In this document: positions 1 through 4,320 of the stretch, piece after piece
Layout: the number at the start of each line of letters is the position of its first letter
How positions within the stretch are numbered: the stretch's first letter is position 1
DNA from: a virus
Lineage: Duplodnaviria; Heunggongvirae; Uroviricota; Caudoviricetes
Length of the DNA: 4,320 nt
Direction: 5' to 3' (one strand)
Virus record (IMG/VR): IMGVR_UViG_2663762945_000005
Span: 1-4,320 of that record
Position numbers and translations under genes: made by a program
The notes under the pieces: generated by a model
Told to the model about the DNA's origin: nothing
Seen by the model: the letters and a program-made list of their open reading frames with translations, nothing else
Database searches by the model: none

Positions 1-92
1 AATTATCTTTAGTAATCACTAAACAAGCAAATACTTGACTTAATGGTTTATTAAACACTAAACTCACAAAAAAACACTAAACCGAGGAAGGT
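1..92 (+). promoter_or_regulatory. Putative early-right promoter/operator region upstream of the cro-like gene. Candidate -35 TTGACT (35-40), 18-nt spacer, candidate -10 TAAACT (59-64), RBS GAGGAAGG (84-91).
   Basis: AT-rich non-coding leader. TTGACT is a 5/6 match to the sigma70 -35 consensus and TAAACT a 4/6 match to -10, keeping the conserved T1, A2 and T6. Three direct copies of cactaaac (17-24, 56-63, 75-82; the last two extend to aaacactaaac at 53-63 and 72-82) lie in or beside the promoter elements. Imperfect palindrome tttagt-aatc-actaaa (8-23) and perfect palindrome gttta-t-taaac (46-56). Confidence 0.45.
8..23. promoter_or_regulatory. Candidate operator: 16-bp imperfect inverted repeat TTTAGT-aatc-ACTAAA.
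   Basis: The arms at 8-13 and 18-23 are exact reverse complements, separated by a 4-bp centre. It sits just upstream of the candidate -35, the usual place for a repressor operator in an immunity region. Confidence 0.35.
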
Positions 93-395
93 ATGACATT
101 AAAAGAGTTTATTAAATCATTAAGGGTTGGTGATGCTAAGAAATTCGCGGCCAGACTTGGTGTATCGCCATCTTACTTATCGCAAATGGCGTCTGGACGA
201 GCAGCTATATCTCCAACCCGCGCCCTTATGATCGAATCTGCGACGGAAGGCCAAGTAAGTAGGGTGGAGCTACGACCCCATGATTGGGAGCTTATTTGGC
301 CTGAGTATGCGAGCGGCATTCGTTTGGGGCAAACACATGTAGTTCATGCTGAAGGTGATTGTAGTGCATGCTTATCTGATGGAGTTGATTCATGA
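93..395 (+). CDS. Cro-like HTH transcriptional regulator (YdaS-family-like), 100 aa.
   Basis: ATG at 93 preceded by RBS GAGGAAGG. Predicted HTH segment AKKFAARLGVSPSYLSQMASGRAAISP. First gene of a rightward operon directly after an operator-like region; stop TGA overlaps the next gene's ATG (ATGA at 392-395). Confidence 0.7.
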   Translation: MTLKEFIKSLRVGDAKKFAARLGVSPSYLSQMASGRAAISPTRALMIESATEGQVSRVELRPHDWELIWPEYASGIRLGQTHVVHAEGDCSACLSDGVDS

Positions 396-817
396 AAATC
401 AAGCATGAACACATCCGCATGGCGATGAATGTCTGGGCGCATCCGGACGGCGAAAAAGTACCGGCTGCGAAAATTACCAAAGCGTATTTCGAGCTGGGAA
501 TGACGTTCCCGGAACTGTATGACGACAGCCATCCGGAAGCCCTGGCCCGTAATACCCAGAAAATTTTCCGTTGGCTGGATAAAGACACCCCTGATGCTGT
601 TGAAAAAATGCAGGCTCTGTTACCGGCGATCGAAAAGGCGATGCCGCCTTTGCTGGTGGCCCGTATGCGCAGCCACAGTTCTGAATATTACCGTGAGATC
701 GTCGAACGGAGGGATCGGCTGGTGAAGGATGTCGATGATTTTGTTGCGTCAGCGGTTGTTTTGTATGACCAGATGAATCGCGGCGGCCCGGCAGGGAATG
801 CTGTGGTGATGCACTAA
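392..817 (+). CDS. YdaT-family protein (CII-like regulator of Rac-type prophages), 141 aa.
   Basis: N-terminus MKIKHEHI matches my recollection of the E. coli Rac prophage YdaT N-terminus. RBS GGAG at 381-384. Translationally coupled to the upstream cro-like gene through the ATGA overlap. Position equals the cII slot. Confidence 0.7.
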   Translation: MKIKHEHIRMAMNVWAHPDGEKVPAAKITKAYFELGMTFPELYDDSHPEALARNTQKIFRWLDKDTPDAVEKMQALLPAIEKAMPPLLVARMRSHSSEYYREIVERRDRLVKDVDDFVASAVVLYDQMNRGGPAGNAVVMH

Positions 818-839
818 AAGCACGGTGTTCGGGGGTTTT

Positions 840-1802
840 ATGAGCAGCAAGCTTCATGGTCTTGTCTGGGAAGGGTGCGCCTTCACCGGCATGATCTTAT
901 CCAGGGTGGCGGTTATGGCCCGTCTTGCAGACTACAGCAATGACGAGGGTGTGTCATGGCCTGCCATTGAAACTATCCGGCGTCAGATCGGTGCAAGAAG
1001 TGAATCCACAGTGAAATCGGCTATTGCAGAACTGGCGAAAGAGGGCTGGCTGACGAAGGAAGAGCGTAAGGTCGGTGGGCGTAATGTAAGCAATATCTAT
1101 CGGCTTAATGTGGAAAAACTCGAAGCAGCTGCGGCGGCGGCGCGTGAGTCATATAAACCGAAAAGAAAAATTAGCCCGGCAAAAAATGACCCGTTAACAG
1201 TTGACCCGTCAAATATTGCCCCCTCAACGGTTGACCCGTCAAATTTTGATGGATCAACTGTTGATAAAAAACTGCCGATTAGGGGGGCGATGATTGACCC
1301 CGATCCGTCAGTATTAAAACCTGATCCATCAGATAAAAGATCTTCTTGTCCGGACGCTTCACAACCGGACCCGCAGACGGCTGAACAGGATTTTTTAACC
1401 CGACACCCTGACGCGGTTGTGTTCAGTGCGAAAAAACGCCAGTGGGGAAGTCAGGAAGATTTGGTGTGCGCACAGTGGATCTGGGGACGAATCGTGAGTC
1501 TTTACGAGCAGGCGGCCAGCGATGATGGCGAGATCACGAGACCGAAAGAACCCAACTGGACAGCATGGGCCAATGACGTTCGCACAATGCGGATGCTGGA
1601 TGGCAGAACTCACAGACAAATTTGTGAAATGTTTGGGCGTGTCCAGCGGGATTCGTTCTGGGTAAAAAACATCATGAGTCCGGGAAAACTCCGGGAAAAA
1701 TGGGATGAACTGGTTATCCGCCTGGGGTGTTCGCCTGCGCAACGTTGCGTGAATCACATTTCTGAACCGGACACTGAAATACCGCCGGGATTCAGGGGGT
1801 GA
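840..1802 (+). CDS. Phage replication initiator (lambda O-like): N-terminal winged-HTH DNA-binding domain, repetitive linker encoded by the iterons, C-terminal domain.
   Basis: N-terminal HTH-like segment ILSRVAVMARLADYSNDEGVSWPAIETIRRQIGARSESTVKSAIAELAKEGWLTKEE. The linker carries the repeated peptide TVDPSN, encoded by the DNA iterons. It lies directly upstream of a DnaC-like gene. I prefer ATG 840 (GGGGG at 831-835) over the ORF-track GTG at 825. Confidence 0.8.
   Translation: MSSKLHGLVWEGCAFTGMILSRVAVMARLADYSNDEGVSWPAIETIRRQIGARSESTVKSAIAELAKEGWLTKEERKVGGRNVSNIYRLNVEKLEAAAAAARESYKPKRKISPAKNDPLTVDPSNIAPSTVDPSNFDGSTVDKKLPIRGAMIDPDPSVLKPDPSDKRSSCPDASQPDPQTAEQDFLTRHPDAVVFSAKKRQWGSQEDLVCAQWIWGRIVSLYEQAASDDGEITRPKEPNWTAWANDVRTMRMLDGRTHRQICEMFGRVQRDSFWVKNIMSPGKLREKWDELVIRLGCSPAQRCVNHISEPDTEIPPGFRG
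1196..1342. repeat. Iteron array of a putative phage replication origin, embedded in the initiator gene: five repeats at about 30-bp (roughly three helical turns) spacing, with a GATC cluster.
   Basis: aacAgttgacccgtcaaat (1196-1214) and aacGgttgacccgtcaaat (1226-1244) match at 18 of 19 positions, with a perfect 14-bp core ttgacccgtcaaat. Degenerate copies: aactgttgat (1256-1265), ttgaccccgatccgtca (1294-1310), ctgatccatcaga (1321-1333). The core is near-palindromic (TTGAC..GTCAA). GATC at 1252, 1302, 1323 and 1339 gives four sites in 91 bp. Confidence 0.75.
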
Positions 1803-1808
1803 CGTGTC

Positions 1809-2555
1809 ATGAAAAACATTGCGGCAGTTGGGGTTCTTGAACGTATTCGCAGACTTGCACCACAGGGGGCGGTTCCACCGTACCGGACGGTGGAGGAGTG
1901 GCGGGAATGGCAACTTGCTGAAGGACGAAAACGCAGCGAGGAGATTAACCGCCAGAATCGCCAGTTGCGGGTGGAAAAAATCCTGAATCGTTCGGGCATT
2001 CAGCCTCTGCACAGCAAATGCTCGTTTGCAAATTATCAGGTGCAGAACGACGGGCAAAAATACGCGCTGAGCCAGGCCAAATCCATAGCTGACGAACTGA
2101 TGACCGGGTGCACGAATTTTGTGTTCAGCGGTAAAACCGGCACCGGGAAAAATCACCTTGCAGCGGCGATGGGCAACCGGCTGATGGTGAAGGGGCGCAG
2201 CGTGATTATCGTCACCGTTTCTGACGTCATGAGCGTGTTGCATGACAGCTACGACAACGGCAAATCCGGGGAAAAATTTTTACAGGAGCTTTGCGGGGTT
2301 GATTTGCTGGTCCTGGATGAAATAGGCGTTCAGCGGGAGACGAAAAACGAGCAGGTGGTATTGCACCAGATAATTGATCGCCGGACAGCATCACTGTGCA
2401 GTGTCGGGATGTTAACAAACCTGAATCATGCCGCAATGAGTACGCTTCTTGGTGAGAGGATTATGGACCGCATGACCATGAACGGTGGTCGATGGGTGAC
2501 GTTTAACTGGGATAGCTGGCGTCCAAATGTCAGCAATATGAGGGTTGTGAAGTAA
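1809..2555 (+). CDS. DnaC-type replicative helicase loader (phage P-analog, AAA+ ATPase), 248 aa.
   Basis: Walker A FSGKTGTGKNHLAAAMG (DnaC-type GTGKNHL). Walker B DLLVLDEIG (2301-2327). Sits immediately after the initiator gene, with ATG 7 nt past the upstream stop. Confidence 0.9.
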   Translation: MKNIAAVGVLERIRRLAPQGAVPPYRTVEEWREWQLAEGRKRSEEINRQNRQLRVEKILNRSGIQPLHSKCSFANYQVQNDGQKYALSQAKSIADELMTGCTNFVFSGKTGTGKNHLAAAMGNRLMVKGRSVIIVTVSDVMSVLHDSYDNGKSGEKFLQELCGVDLLVLDEIGVQRETKNEQVVLHQIIDRRTASLCSVGMLTNLNHAAMSTLLGERIMDRMTMNGGRWVTFNWDSWRPNVSNMRVVK

Positions 2556-2576
2556 TTTTGTTCGGAGGAAATTTTA

Positions 2577-3347
2577 ATGGAAACCGTATCTGACGCACTG
2601 AAAGCACTGAAAAAAGCCTCTTCACATGTGGTGGCAGCTCGCCTTGGAATCAGTCGTGAAGAGGCTGTCAACGAGCTGTGGGAACTCAAAAGAAATGGCG
2701 TCGTTGATAAAACTGGTCACACCTGGTTTCTGGCTGGCGAAGGTGAATCCCGGGTAACCGAAGAGCGGCCAGTAAAATCTGAAGCACAGGATATGCTGAC
2801 CGGGGAGGTCGAACAAAAAGTTACCGCAGACATGATGATTGAGTTTATCGGTCAGGATGGGGCTAAAACGTGTGAGGAACTGGCGGGTAAGTTCGGTGTC
2901 AGTACTCGCAAGGTTGCTTCCACGCTGGCGGTGGTAACCGCAACGGGGCGGCTGGCACGCGTTAATCAGAACGGTAAATTTCGTTACTGCATGCCGGGCG
3001 ATAATTTACCAGCAGAGCCGAAAGCCGCGCTGGTAACGGAAAGTGATGGTAAGGCCTTTCCTCAGCCAGCAGGTGCTGCGTTACCAGTCCGGGAAGCCGC
3101 AACACAGGAAAAAATTAAAACAGAAACTGTGGCGGACATTGTGCAGTCGTTGCCATCGTTTACCGAAACGCAAGCAGATGAGCTGATTTTTCCGTCCCTG
3201 CGCAGGGCAAACCTGGCGCTGCGCAGGGCGAAAAGTGATGTTCAGAAGTGGGAGCGAGTCTGCGCCGCGCTGCGGGAGCTGAACAAGCACCGGGATATTG
3301 TTCGACAGATTACTGATTCTTCCCGCCGTGTTGTATCGGAAAAGTGA
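2577..3347 (+). CDS. Hypothetical protein, 256 aa, with two tandem winged-helix-like segments, an Ala/Pro/Glu-rich linker and a C-terminal helical region.
   Basis: Strong RBS GGAGG (2564-2568) 8 nt before ATG 2577. Two segments of similar pattern, SSHVVAARLGISREEAVNELWELKRNGVVDKTGHTWFL and KTCEELAGKFGVSTRKVASTLAVVTATGRLARVNQNGKFRYCM. Codon usage matches the neighbouring genes. No function assignable from sequence. Confidence 0.7.
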   Translation: METVSDALKALKKASSHVVAARLGISREEAVNELWELKRNGVVDKTGHTWFLAGEGESRVTEERPVKSEAQDMLTGEVEQKVTADMMIEFIGQDGAKTCEELAGKFGVSTRKVASTLAVVTATGRLARVNQNGKFRYCMPGDNLPAEPKAALVTESDGKAFPQPAGAALPVREAATQEKIKTETVADIVQSLPSFTETQADELIFPSLRRANLALRRAKSDVQKWERVCAALRELNKHRDIVRQITDSSRRVVSEK

Positions 3348-3362
3348 TTGCCGGAGGCGCTT

Positions 3363-3785
3363 ATGGCAAAAGTATTTACACAAGAAGAGCGAGAAAAAAT
3401 TAAAGGGCAGGTTGTTGAGCTAGTACGCCGGAGTGGGCGCGAGACGTTACGGCAACTGGAAGCCAAGACAGGTGCGACAAGATATCTGATGAGCGTTCTT
3501 GCCAGAGAGCTGGTTGCCAGTGGCGATGTATACAACTCTGGTTACGGGTTATTCCCGTCTGAACAGGCTCGTAAGGACTGGCAAAATGCCCGCAAAAAAC
3601 TCTCAAGGGCAAAGGTGAAGAAACCTGCAGTGGTTGATCCGGACCTTATCTGGTCGTTACCAGACGGCGAAATACGCCGCTACGACAGGCGCCTAAACAT
3701 AATCTGTCGCGAGTGCCGGAAGAGTGAAGCTATGCAGCGTGTACTGGCTTTCTATCAGGGTAATTTTCAGGAGGCGGTACTGTGA
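3363..3785 (+). CDS. Hypothetical small protein, 140 aa, with an N-terminal HTH-like segment and a C-terminal CxxC motif.
   Basis: GGAGG (3353-3357) 5 nt upstream of ATG 3363, which I prefer to the ORF-track TTG at 3348. HTH-like ETLRQLEAKTGATRYLMSVLARELVASGDV; C-terminal IICRECRK. Stop TGA at 3783-3785. Confidence 0.65.
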   Translation: MAKVFTQEEREKIKGQVVELVRRSGRETLRQLEAKTGATRYLMSVLARELVASGDVYNSGYGLFPSEQARKDWQNARKKLSRAKVKKPAVVDPDLIWSLPDGEIRRYDRRLNIICRECRKSEAMQRVLAFYQGNFQEAVL

Positions 3786-3842
3786 GTGAAATTAGCTATC
3801 AGGCTTCAATTACCGCTGGCATTCGCATCAAAGGAGAGGAGC

Positions 3843-4199
3843 ATGGAAATAAAACCAGAGGATGAGTTAAGCAATATCGTTTTATTTCCGGTAAAAGAGG
3901 ATGACCCTCGTAATCAGGTTAATTTTCTTTATGAGCCATCGGAAAGACCATATTGCCATCACGCCTCTGTTCGGGTTGACGAAAAAGAGCGTCAGGTCCG
4001 CTGTAAAATCTGCGGTGCAGTTGTGGAGCCGTTTGACTGGATGCTCTCTGTGGCGAAAAGAGAAACCAGACTGGCAGATGATGTAAGGCTATTGCGCCAG
4101 GAGGAACAGGAAAGGCGGAAAAATATAGAAAAGTTAATTCAGATTGAGCGTAACGCGAAAGCGCGGATACGCAGGGCGACAAAATCCAGAACTGAATAA
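3843..4199 (+). CDS. Hypothetical small protein, 118 aa, with a putative zinc-binding motif and a basic C-terminal coiled coil.
   Basis: RBS AGGAG (3832-3836) 6 nt before ATG 3843. The alternative in-frame GTG at 3786 abuts the upstream stop but has a weaker 11-nt spacing to AGGAGG (3769-3774). Motif YCHH-x13-C-x2-C; C-terminus rich in R/K/E (LRQEEQERRKNIEKLIQIERNAKARIRR). Confidence 0.6.
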   Translation: MEIKPEDELSNIVLFPVKEDDPRNQVNFLYEPSERPYCHHASVRVDEKERQVRCKICGAVVEPFDWMLSVAKRETRLADDVRLLRQEEQERRKNIEKLIQIERNAKARIRRATKSRTE

Positions 4200-4249
4200 A
4201 TAAATTTAGCGCTGTAAATAAAATCTAATCCTTAACTGGAGGTATATTT

Positions 4250-4320
4250 ATGTTAAATACACAGAAAGCCATTAATGCGGAAAAATATAACGAGTGGGCA
4301 AGAAAATTCTCTGAGCAGAT
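4250..4320 (+). CDS. 5' end of a further hypothetical gene (MLNTQKAINAEKYNEWARKFSEQ...), truncated by the window edge.
   Basis: RBS CTGGAGGT (4237-4244) 5 nt upstream of ATG 4250. Open to the end of the window, same strand as the operon. Confidence 0.5.
   Translation, partial: MLNTQKAINAEKYNEWARKFSEQ

Follow-up and report, generated by a model that had tools for sequence, protein, structure and literature searches.

In phage lambda, as well as in the lambdoid phages phi80, 82, 933W and the Shiga toxin (Stx) phages, the replication origin lies midway along gene O (PMC7466680). Here we analyze a locus of this kind in the virus record IMGVR_UViG_2663762945_000005, positions 1-4,320; this whole stretch of 4,320 nt is designated the window, and all coordinates refer to it unless stated otherwise. 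The window corresponds to the early-right operon of an Escherichia coli prophage of the lambdoid (Rac/Qin-like) kind. Within its O-like replication initiator gene, the segment 1171-1347 is most probably the vegetative replication origin of the prophage, with iterons that would bind the initiator, situated in the part of the gene that codes for a linker of the same protein. Support for this comes from constraint acting on the DNA itself, the dyad symmetry of the sites, a position equivalent to that of ori-lambda, the co-inheritance of the N-terminal domain (N-domain) of the initiator with its repeats, and the pairing of O and P homologs in close relatives. The locus is, as far as its sequence tells, a new and putative example of the known lambdoid origin-in-initiator arrangement, conceptually textbook. 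It departs from lambda in the family of the N-domain, the sequence and 15-bp packing of the sites, a conserved GATC-bearing block, and the type of helicase loader and of C-terminal tail.

Iterons within the initiator gene and their likeness to ori-lambda

Over its full length, the O-like protein matched PHROG 391 ('replication initiation O-like', E = 7e-115), with PHROG 277 also designated 'O-like', and the start of its gene is that of the RefSeq coding sequence in the closest chromosomal match, L001. RefSeq names the homologs of the protein only as 'helix-turn-helix domain-containing protein'. An AlphaFold2 model built on an alignment of 21 sequences, with its confidence given as the predicted local distance difference test (pLDDT) score, led to the following division of the gene:

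840-1802, plus strand: O-like replication initiator gene, 320 amino acids (open reading frame, PHROG, Pfam and similarity to lambda O)
840..1154, plus strand: winged-helix N-domain, residues 1-105 (AlphaFold, topology H-H-H-H-E-E-H, pLDDT 70-88)
1164-1376: disordered linker, residues 109-179 (AlphaFold, pLDDT <50)
1377..1730, plus strand: helical C-terminal domain (C-domain), residues 180-297 (AlphaFold; homologous to the C-domain of lambda O)
1740..1799, plus strand: C-terminal tail QRCVNHISEPDTEIPPGFRG, last 20 codons (15/20 identical to the C-terminus of DnaT)

Pfam identified the family HTH_36 at residues 25-71 and, besides it, only a weak match to DnaD_N; Phage_rep_O, the family of the N-domain of lambda O, was not found by Pfam in the protein, and residues 1-144 of lambda O gave no alignment with it. 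The N-domain is presumed to be the iteron-binding domain. In a Foldseek search of the model against the PDB, it matched generic winged-helix dimers of the MarR/PadR/Fur type (E = 4.5e-3 or weaker), with no specific initiator relative retrieved from this database, and its likeness to these dimeric regulators fits the binding of short palindromes. The C-domain aligns with residues 145-270 of lambda O, with 35% identity over 141 residues (E = 2e-25). The C-domain of lambda O contacts the helicase loader.

A perfect 15-bp repeat, GTTGACCCGTCAAAT, occurs at 1200-1214 and 1230-1244; the first-pass annotation of this DNA had recognized the two copies, although crediting them with a perfect core of 14 bp. 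That annotation placed them, together with three degenerate copies, on a grid of five iterons spaced 30 bp, or about three helical turns. The actual step is 15 bp, around 1.4 turns; the degenerate copies, at 1186, 1216 and 1246, interleave with the perfect ones. Tandem Repeats Finder delimited the array at 1175-1264 with a period of 15 bp (score 89-94), and the 30-bp period is a super-period limited to the allele of the window. Each unit consists of a 12-bp dyad-symmetric site, of the type TTGAC-CC-GTCAA, plus a 3-bp spacer. The sites form two blocks, followed by a segment rich in A+T:

1171-1182 and 1261-1272: degenerate units flanking block A
1186..1257: iteron block A, five head-to-tail 15-bp units (repeat finding, motif scan and conservation)
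1186-1197: block A, site 1, ATGACCCGTTAA
1201-1212: block A, site 2, TTGACCCGTCAA
1216-1227: block A, site 3, TTGCCCCCTCAA
1231-1242: block A, site 4, TTGACCCGTCAA
1246-1257: block A, site 5, TTGATGGATCAA, with an inverted centre
1258..1278: A-rich spacer between blocks A and B, CTGTTGATAAAAAACTGCCGA (read from the sequence)
1279..1331: iteron block B (motif scan and comparison of homologs)
1279-1290: block B, weak site, TTAGGGGGGCGA
1294-1305 and 1301-1310: block B, overlapping sites, TTGACCCCGATC and CGATCCGTCA
1322-1331: block B, site TGATCCATCA
1308..1347: A+T-rich segment, 70% A+T, proposed unwinding region (stability scan)

The motif TGAYCCRTCA, with up to one mismatch, matched seven times in the window against 0.95 expected, a count reached by none of 200 shuffles, and six of the seven matches fall in 1187-1331; among these six are the one with inverted orientation, at 1247, and two more at 1301 and 1322. 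The A-rich spacer moves the 15-bp register by 3 bp; beyond it, the block B sites 1301-1310 and 1322-1331 contain a GATC each, 21 bp apart. The array and the downstream sites (1171-1347) are wholly inside the DNA coding for the predicted disordered linker, and the low pLDDT of residues 109-179 agrees with the earlier placement of the repeats in the linker-coding part of the gene.

We also noticed a perfect match to the DnaA-box consensus, TTTTCCACA, at 1109-1117 in the minus strand, some 70 bp to the left of the array, as well as a box with one mismatch, TTATCAACA, at 1259-1267 in the minus strand, inside the A-rich spacer. DnaA boxes were discarded as parts of the origin: their counts are at chance level, and the box at 1109 is not kept in the homologs from other genera.

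The anatomy of the locus follows closely that of ori-lambda, in which the origin is likewise inside the initiator gene, between the DNA-binding N-domain and the loader-binding C-domain, and comprises several dyad-symmetric iterons with an A+T-rich region on the promoter-distal side. The array occupies nucleotides 336-425 of its gene, and the lambda iterons occupy nucleotides 349-435 of theirs; in both systems, in-frame variants in copy number are tolerated. The segment 1308-1347, directly to the right of the sites, corresponds by protein alignment to the A+T-rich region of lambda. It is the least stable 40-mer of the gene and of any coding part of the window (-45.6 kcal/mol, versus a window mean of -55.6 with a standard deviation of 4.1, i.e., 2.4 standard deviations), and overlaps the site at 1322-1331 and two GATC sites. 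The homology of the C-domain, the position of the array and the A+T-rich segment at its right thus favor the lambda-style origin inside the O-like gene that had been proposed for this DNA. The proposal that its iterons differ from those of lambda also held: the window has a 12-bp TTGA-SSSS-TCAA dyad every 15 bp, whereas lambda has four iterons of approximately 19 bp (ATCCCTCAAAACGAGGGA) at 20-24 bp, with individual spacings of 20, 24 and 23 bp. An N-domain from a different family, HTH_36 instead of Phage_rep_O, fits this difference in iteron sequence. Additionally, the sites of the window are arranged in two blocks, with GATC kept in or next to the A+T-rich part, where lambda has none; the loader is DnaC-like and not P, and a DnaT-like tail forms the C-terminus of the protein.

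Constraint on the DNA and exchange of modules among homologs

For comparison, we took homologs of the gene from phage records (PhiR49_1, Klebsiella phage 1 LV-2017, Eeyore, phiP27, Kp4866-6, vB_EcoS-716R3 and YeP2), from genomes of Erwinia, Mixta, Edwardsiella and Scandinavium, and from other assemblies (Citrobacter, a Salmonella-like contig, Serratia symbiotica and Morganella), plus divergent alleles from E. coli. A scan of viral contigs with the full O-like protein retrieved only copies that were 98-99% identical, which were used for single-nucleotide polymorphisms (SNPs) and allele frequencies but not for divergence. An array with a 15-bp period was present at the same position of the gene in all 20 homologs examined, with 2.5-8.5 copies, and is kept in at least nine enterobacterial genera (those examined were Escherichia, Citrobacter, Klebsiella, Yersinia, Erwinia, Mixta, Edwardsiella, Serratia, Morganella and Scandinavium). 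Equivalents of block B were also found in all homologs, with two or three copies of GATCCGTCA placed after TTAAGGGGTCAA or TTAACCCCCCAA. Among the E. coli alleles, the length of the array changes by whole units, being 15 bp shorter in two of them and 30 bp shorter in one.

Such changes of 15 or 30 bp are as expected of slippage-prone coding repeats, and the encoded peptide does repeat (NDPLT VDPSN IAPST VDPSN FDGST). The array could then be driven by the protein only, as a slippage-made pentapeptide linker rich in Pro, Ser and Asp, the similarity of the DNA being a by-product with no role in cis. The number of GATC sites, which matches the expectation from the peptide alone, and the lack of SNP depletion in the linker among near-identical alleles would also agree with this explanation, which we nevertheless deem very improbable in view of the behavior of synonymous positions. 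Among 45 units from seven genes with the N-domain type of the window, the third-codon base at unit position 12 is A in all 45, while the encoded residue varies (Ser in 21, Pro in 16, Leu in 7 and Ala in 1); at position 3, another third-codon base, 43 of the 45 units have T. The information content of the unit is mirror-symmetric around the dyad and lowest in the spacer (mean of 0.52 bits, versus 1.22 in the site), whereas the means for the three codon positions are nearly equal (1.19, 0.97 and 1.07); conservation of the unit therefore tracks the dyad and not the codon position. Likewise, the genes from Edwardsiella, a Pantoea-like source and others contain inverted-centre units, with TTGAGGGGTTAA in place of TTGACCCCCCAA, which turn the peptide IDPPN into VEGLT but keep the dyad.

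Codon identity, scored only at conserved residues in 14 pairwise comparisons of genes, was distributed as follows:

N-domain: codon identity 0.48, amino-acid identity 0.76
C-domain: codon identity 0.52, amino-acid identity 0.70
Whole linker: codon identity 0.82, amino-acid identity 0.62
Array within the linker: codon identity 0.72, amino-acid identity 0.57
Nucleotides 1290-1349 within the linker: codon identity 0.91, amino-acid identity 0.78

The linker thus shows the highest codon identity in spite of having the lowest amino-acid identity, compared with both folded domains. Moreover, in 5000 synonymous recodings of the window peptide the motif appeared 0.98 +/- 0.92 times, versus six observed, and none of the 5000 reached six; identity at a lag of 15 nt was 0.65, versus 0.47 under synonymous recoding (P = 2e-4). 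The constancy of third-codon bases, the codon identity and the excess over recoding together disfavor a repeat driven by the protein only, and the alignment of homologs, a check proposed in the first-pass annotation, indicates that the iteron DNA is kept beyond what the protein needs.

Comparison of divergent E. coli alleles revealed that the gene is modular. Allele L100 has an N-domain and linker almost identical to those of the window and diverges from around position 1357 onward. Conversely, allele L101 has the same C-domain as the window and an unrelated N-domain, which is accompanied, in the same place, by its own five iterons, of different sequence and spaced 23-24 bp, and then by a triple repeat rich in A+T. 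The N-domains of Min27 and ST64B, more distant members of the HTH_36 family, are also accompanied at this place by iterons of their own, spaced 21-24 bp. The onset of megablast similarity to alleles with other N-domains, at position 463 or 496 of the query (window 1302 or 1335), together with the comparison of L100 and L101, defines the joint at which alleles recombine:

1335..1370: conserved joint, AAAAGATCTTCTTGTCCGGACGCTTCACAACCGGAC (megablast starts and comparison of L100 and L101)

From these alleles, the N-domain and its repeats appear as a co-inherited unit that recombines with C-domain modules at the joint, at approximately 1335-1370, as expected of an initiator and its cognate origin. 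As a separate observation, the hexamer CCGGAC occurs at 1349 and again 15 bp further on, at 1364, inside the block TGTCCGGACGCTTCRCAACCGGAC (window 1349-1369), which is kept even in alleles with unrelated N-domains and coincides with this inter-module recombination joint.

Sites that are truly bound could still serve an end other than the start of replication, either as an autoregulatory or copy-control array (by titration or handcuffing) or as the sites of another phage or host protein. An origin and a regulatory array are indistinguishable by sequence alone, the A+T-rich segment is only moderate, a 15-bp packing is atypical of lambdoid origins and the window covers only 4.3 kb of the prophage. 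We consider this explanation improbable, though, given that the position of the array relative to the homologous C-domain is equivalent to that of ori-lambda, that alleles with unrelated N-domains have their own iterons and an A+T-rich repeat at the same spot, and that synonymous conservation is highest in the A+T-rich part adjoining the sites.

The partners of the initiator also place it in a replication context. In the window, the next gene codes for a DnaC/IstB-like protein and not for a P-type loader; however, in relatives with the same type of N-domain and iterons (Erwinia, Mixta, Edwardsiella, Serratia, Morganella and the Salmonella-like contig) a homolog of lambda P (Phage_lambda_P) immediately follows the initiator gene, so that the close relatives of the window resemble lambda in this pairing. 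The tail of the initiator co-varies with the helicase-loader partner (L006, L007, L009, L104 and L105, versus the window, L098, L100 and L108). Tails of the types ...WENTL, ...WEDVL and ...WRDVL, which resemble the C-terminal end of lambda O (...DWIYG...), were followed by a lambda P homolog in the five cases checked; after ...GFRG tails, the loader gene was either DnaC-like or missing altogether; L106 has P next to it and yet a different tail ending. The tail of the window protein is identical in 15 of its 20 residues to the extreme C-terminus of the host replication-restart protein DnaT (PDB 2ru8, 6aep and 9zbt), which probably explains the annotation of homologs as 'primosomal protein I'; the same DnaT-like tail is present in YdaU from the Rac prophage of strain K-12, a protein otherwise unrelated.

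For the preferred reading of 1171-1347 as the origin, we infer iteron binding, unwinding and helicase recruitment as follows. Dimers of the N-terminal winged helix would bind the 12-bp dyads (TTGA-SSSS-TCAA) every 15 bp in block A, and also in block B; the nucleoprotein complex formed on both blocks would then open the adjacent segment of 70% A+T at 1308-1347, and the lambda-O-like C-domain and the DnaT-like tail would bring in DnaB by means of the adjoining DnaC-like loader.

Several points weigh against this reading. The A+T-rich segment is modest, with 70% A+T over 40 bp, compared to 75% over 44 bp in lambda. The centre-to-centre spacing of 15 bp is unlike the 20-24 bp of lambda, Min27, ST64B and L101-type origins, and it is not obvious that all the sites packed in this way could be occupied simultaneously. 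Among 31 distinct, near-identical E. coli alleles, the linker contains 5.6 variable sites per 100 nt, versus 4.0-4.3 in the domains. The counts of units and gene pairs are not independent samples either, since common ancestry links those compared and concerted evolution acts on them. The window itself carries two minority variants that weaken sites: C at 1219, where 66 of 80 close relatives have A, giving the consensus site 3 TTGACCCCTCAA, and A at 1328, where 80 of 80 have G, giving GATCCGTCA and the sequence TGATCCGTCA that all of them read at 1322-1331. These changes may indicate that the prophage of the window is decaying. Lastly, our literature search found no paper describing this type of origin or an experiment on it.

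GATC sites and possible control by Dam and SeqA

1252, 1302, 1323 and 1339 (span 1252..1342): GATC sites

The four positions of this cluster are those given by the first-pass annotation, which counted about 12 GATC sites in the window; the actual total is 14. Four sites in 91 bp have a scan-statistic probability of P = 0.027 under uniform placement, and the count of four is no excess over the mean of 4.26 obtained by synonymous recoding of the Asp-Pro-rich peptide (P = 0.7). Three of the four lie inside iteron-type sites (1247-1256, 1301-1310 and 1322-1331). Homologs from Erwinia, Mixta, Edwardsiella, Serratia, Morganella and Citrobacter keep the sites at 1302, 1323 and 1339, of which those at 1302 and 1323 are shared by the class from Klebsiella and Yersinia as well. 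In every homolog examined, the two or three copies of GATCCGTCA are spaced 12, 18, 21 or 24 bp, and in the class of the window they are followed by AGATCTTCTTG. Overall, among 21 homologs, the density of GATC in the block B part of the gene is 20 per kb, versus 4 per kb elsewhere in the same genes.

The distribution of codons for Asp is also uneven. Within the arrays as delimited by Tandem Repeats Finder, which gives an unbiased count, Asp-Pro is encoded by GAC-CCN in 26 of 26 cases and never forms GATC, whereas Asp before a residue other than Pro uses GAT in 10 of 25 (Fisher P = 2.6e-4). Downstream of the array, Asp-Pro is GAT-CCN in 43 of 49 cases, a count for which the boundary was set by the first GATCC, thus biasing the upstream class. 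The synonymous choice between C and T in these codons is, in the homologs compared, position-specific and conserved. It is plausible that the conserved GATC serves a control by Dam and SeqA, or merely distinguishes two classes of initiator sites, the sequence being compatible with either.

Dam- and GATC-dependent origins include the 13-mers of oriC from E. coli, oriR from P1, and ori2 from Vibrio cholerae with its RctB 12-mers. The window resembles them in having GATC within or close to the unwinding region and, like ori2, inside initiator-type sites; it differs in having only three or four such sites, with no enrichment over a null model that preserves the peptide. To our knowledge, gating of firing by Dam and SeqA is not known for lambda-type origins.

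As an addition to the origin, and as the first-pass annotation had suggested, methylation by Dam and binding of SeqA might gate its firing through the GATC sites at 1302, 1323 and 1339; this we regard as possible, although we lean against it. Two of these three sites lie inside initiator-type sites in or adjoining the unwinding region; two or three copies of GATCCGTCA and one of AGATCT stand at positions conserved across genera, with the higher density already noted; and the GATC-free array contrasts with the downstream preference for GAT-CCN, while there is no GATC in the origin of lambda. Then again, the cluster in the window is marginal and does not exceed the peptide-preserving null, and the conserved T may reflect recognition by the initiator of a variant of the site and not methylation. 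The spacing of GATC also varies, and some of the values observed (12, 18, 21 and 24 bp) are unsuited to the binding of SeqA, and the E. coli allele L099 does not have the middle GATC site. In most relatives (L002, L003, L004, L012, L094, L095, L104 and L105), a gene of the Dam or MethyltransfD12 type was seen downstream of the initiator, one or two genes away at most, and neither the window nor the 17 kb of context in L001 contained a DNA adenine methylase gene. The presence of a Dam-type methylase gene near the initiator in many relatives is suggestive of Dam control, but not specific, because these genes are common in lambdoid phages for other reasons.

A broader reading would join these elements in a widespread, uncharacterised class of enterobacterial prophage origins, formed by a GATC-free 15-bp array plus GATC sites in the unwinding region, gated by Dam (from the host or the phage) and SeqA, with a tail copied from DnaT that recruits DnaB-DnaC and is swapped for one of the lambda-O type when the partner is P. 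We offer it tentatively, as rather unlikely to hold in its entirety.

Prophage context and significance

The genes of the window surrounding the initiator are these:

93-395: Cro/YdaS-like gene (list of open reading frames and Pfam)
392-817: YdaT-family gene, occupying the cII position (list of open reading frames and Pfam)
1809-2555, plus strand: DnaC/IstB-like AAA+ helicase-loader gene (Pfam and PHROG; 80% identity to YdaV from the K-12 Rac prophage)
2577-3347: DUF1627 gene (list of open reading frames and Pfam)
3363-3785: DUF977 gene (list of open reading frames and Pfam)

The best chromosomal matches of the window show 98.3% identity, e.g., in sequence type 131 (ST131), and in them the region is flanked by a left arm with integrase, exonuclease and dicB and a right arm of the RusA/Q type. 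Of 5426 complete E. coli genomes, 1515 carry the O-like gene in full length, among them ST131, O157:H7 and enteropathogenic E. coli lineages. Upstream of the Cro/YdaS-like gene, the motif AA(A/T)CACTAAAC occurs three times in the window (14-24, 53-63 and 72-82), and a promoter-like sequence, TTGACT-18-TAAACT, lies amid these copies at 35-64; the immunity module probably has its rightward operator/promoter region here, at 8-82. In L001, the annotation gives the DUF977 gene (9363-9785, corresponding to window 3363-3785) as a pseudogene because of an internal stop, a hint of decay in some copies of the prophage. An Rfam scan of the window detected no RNA family, and an explanation of the region based on RNA was dropped for this reason; there are no minus-strand open reading frames of at least 40 residues overlapping 1196-1342.

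Besides lambda, the locus can be compared to oriJ and the Rac prophage of K-12 (ydaS-ydaT-ydaU-ydaV). Both share the succession of YdaS-like, YdaT-like, initiator and YdaV-type loader genes (80% for the latter), followed by DUF1627/DUF977, as well as the DnaT-like C-terminal tail of their initiators; additionally, allele L098 of the gene of the window adjoins racR. In contrast, YdaU is a DUF1376 protein that is similar to the initiator of the window only in the tail, and ydaU from K-12 contains no 15-bp array. The papers searched on oriJ and on phages SfII, SfIV and SfV gave no description of this type of origin, nor a position of oriJ at the sequence level; the paper on the Eru replication regions of Stx phages contains no text on iterons or origins, and a search for the iteron sequence retrieved only primers. 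The 'P27' of PMC7466680 carries a lambda-type O protein and is distinct from the phiP27 homolog (L17) compared here.

The locus departs from the lambda model in specific ways, with the 15-bp packing of its sites, the partition of GATC between array and downstream block, and its DnaT-like tail, and the arrangement shows a cis-acting DNA element shaping the sequence of a disordered protein linker. Definition of the origin would give work on the induction, replication and incompatibility of prophages a cis site that can be tested, and would also improve the annotation of an initiator that is now labelled as a 'helix-turn-helix domain-containing protein'.

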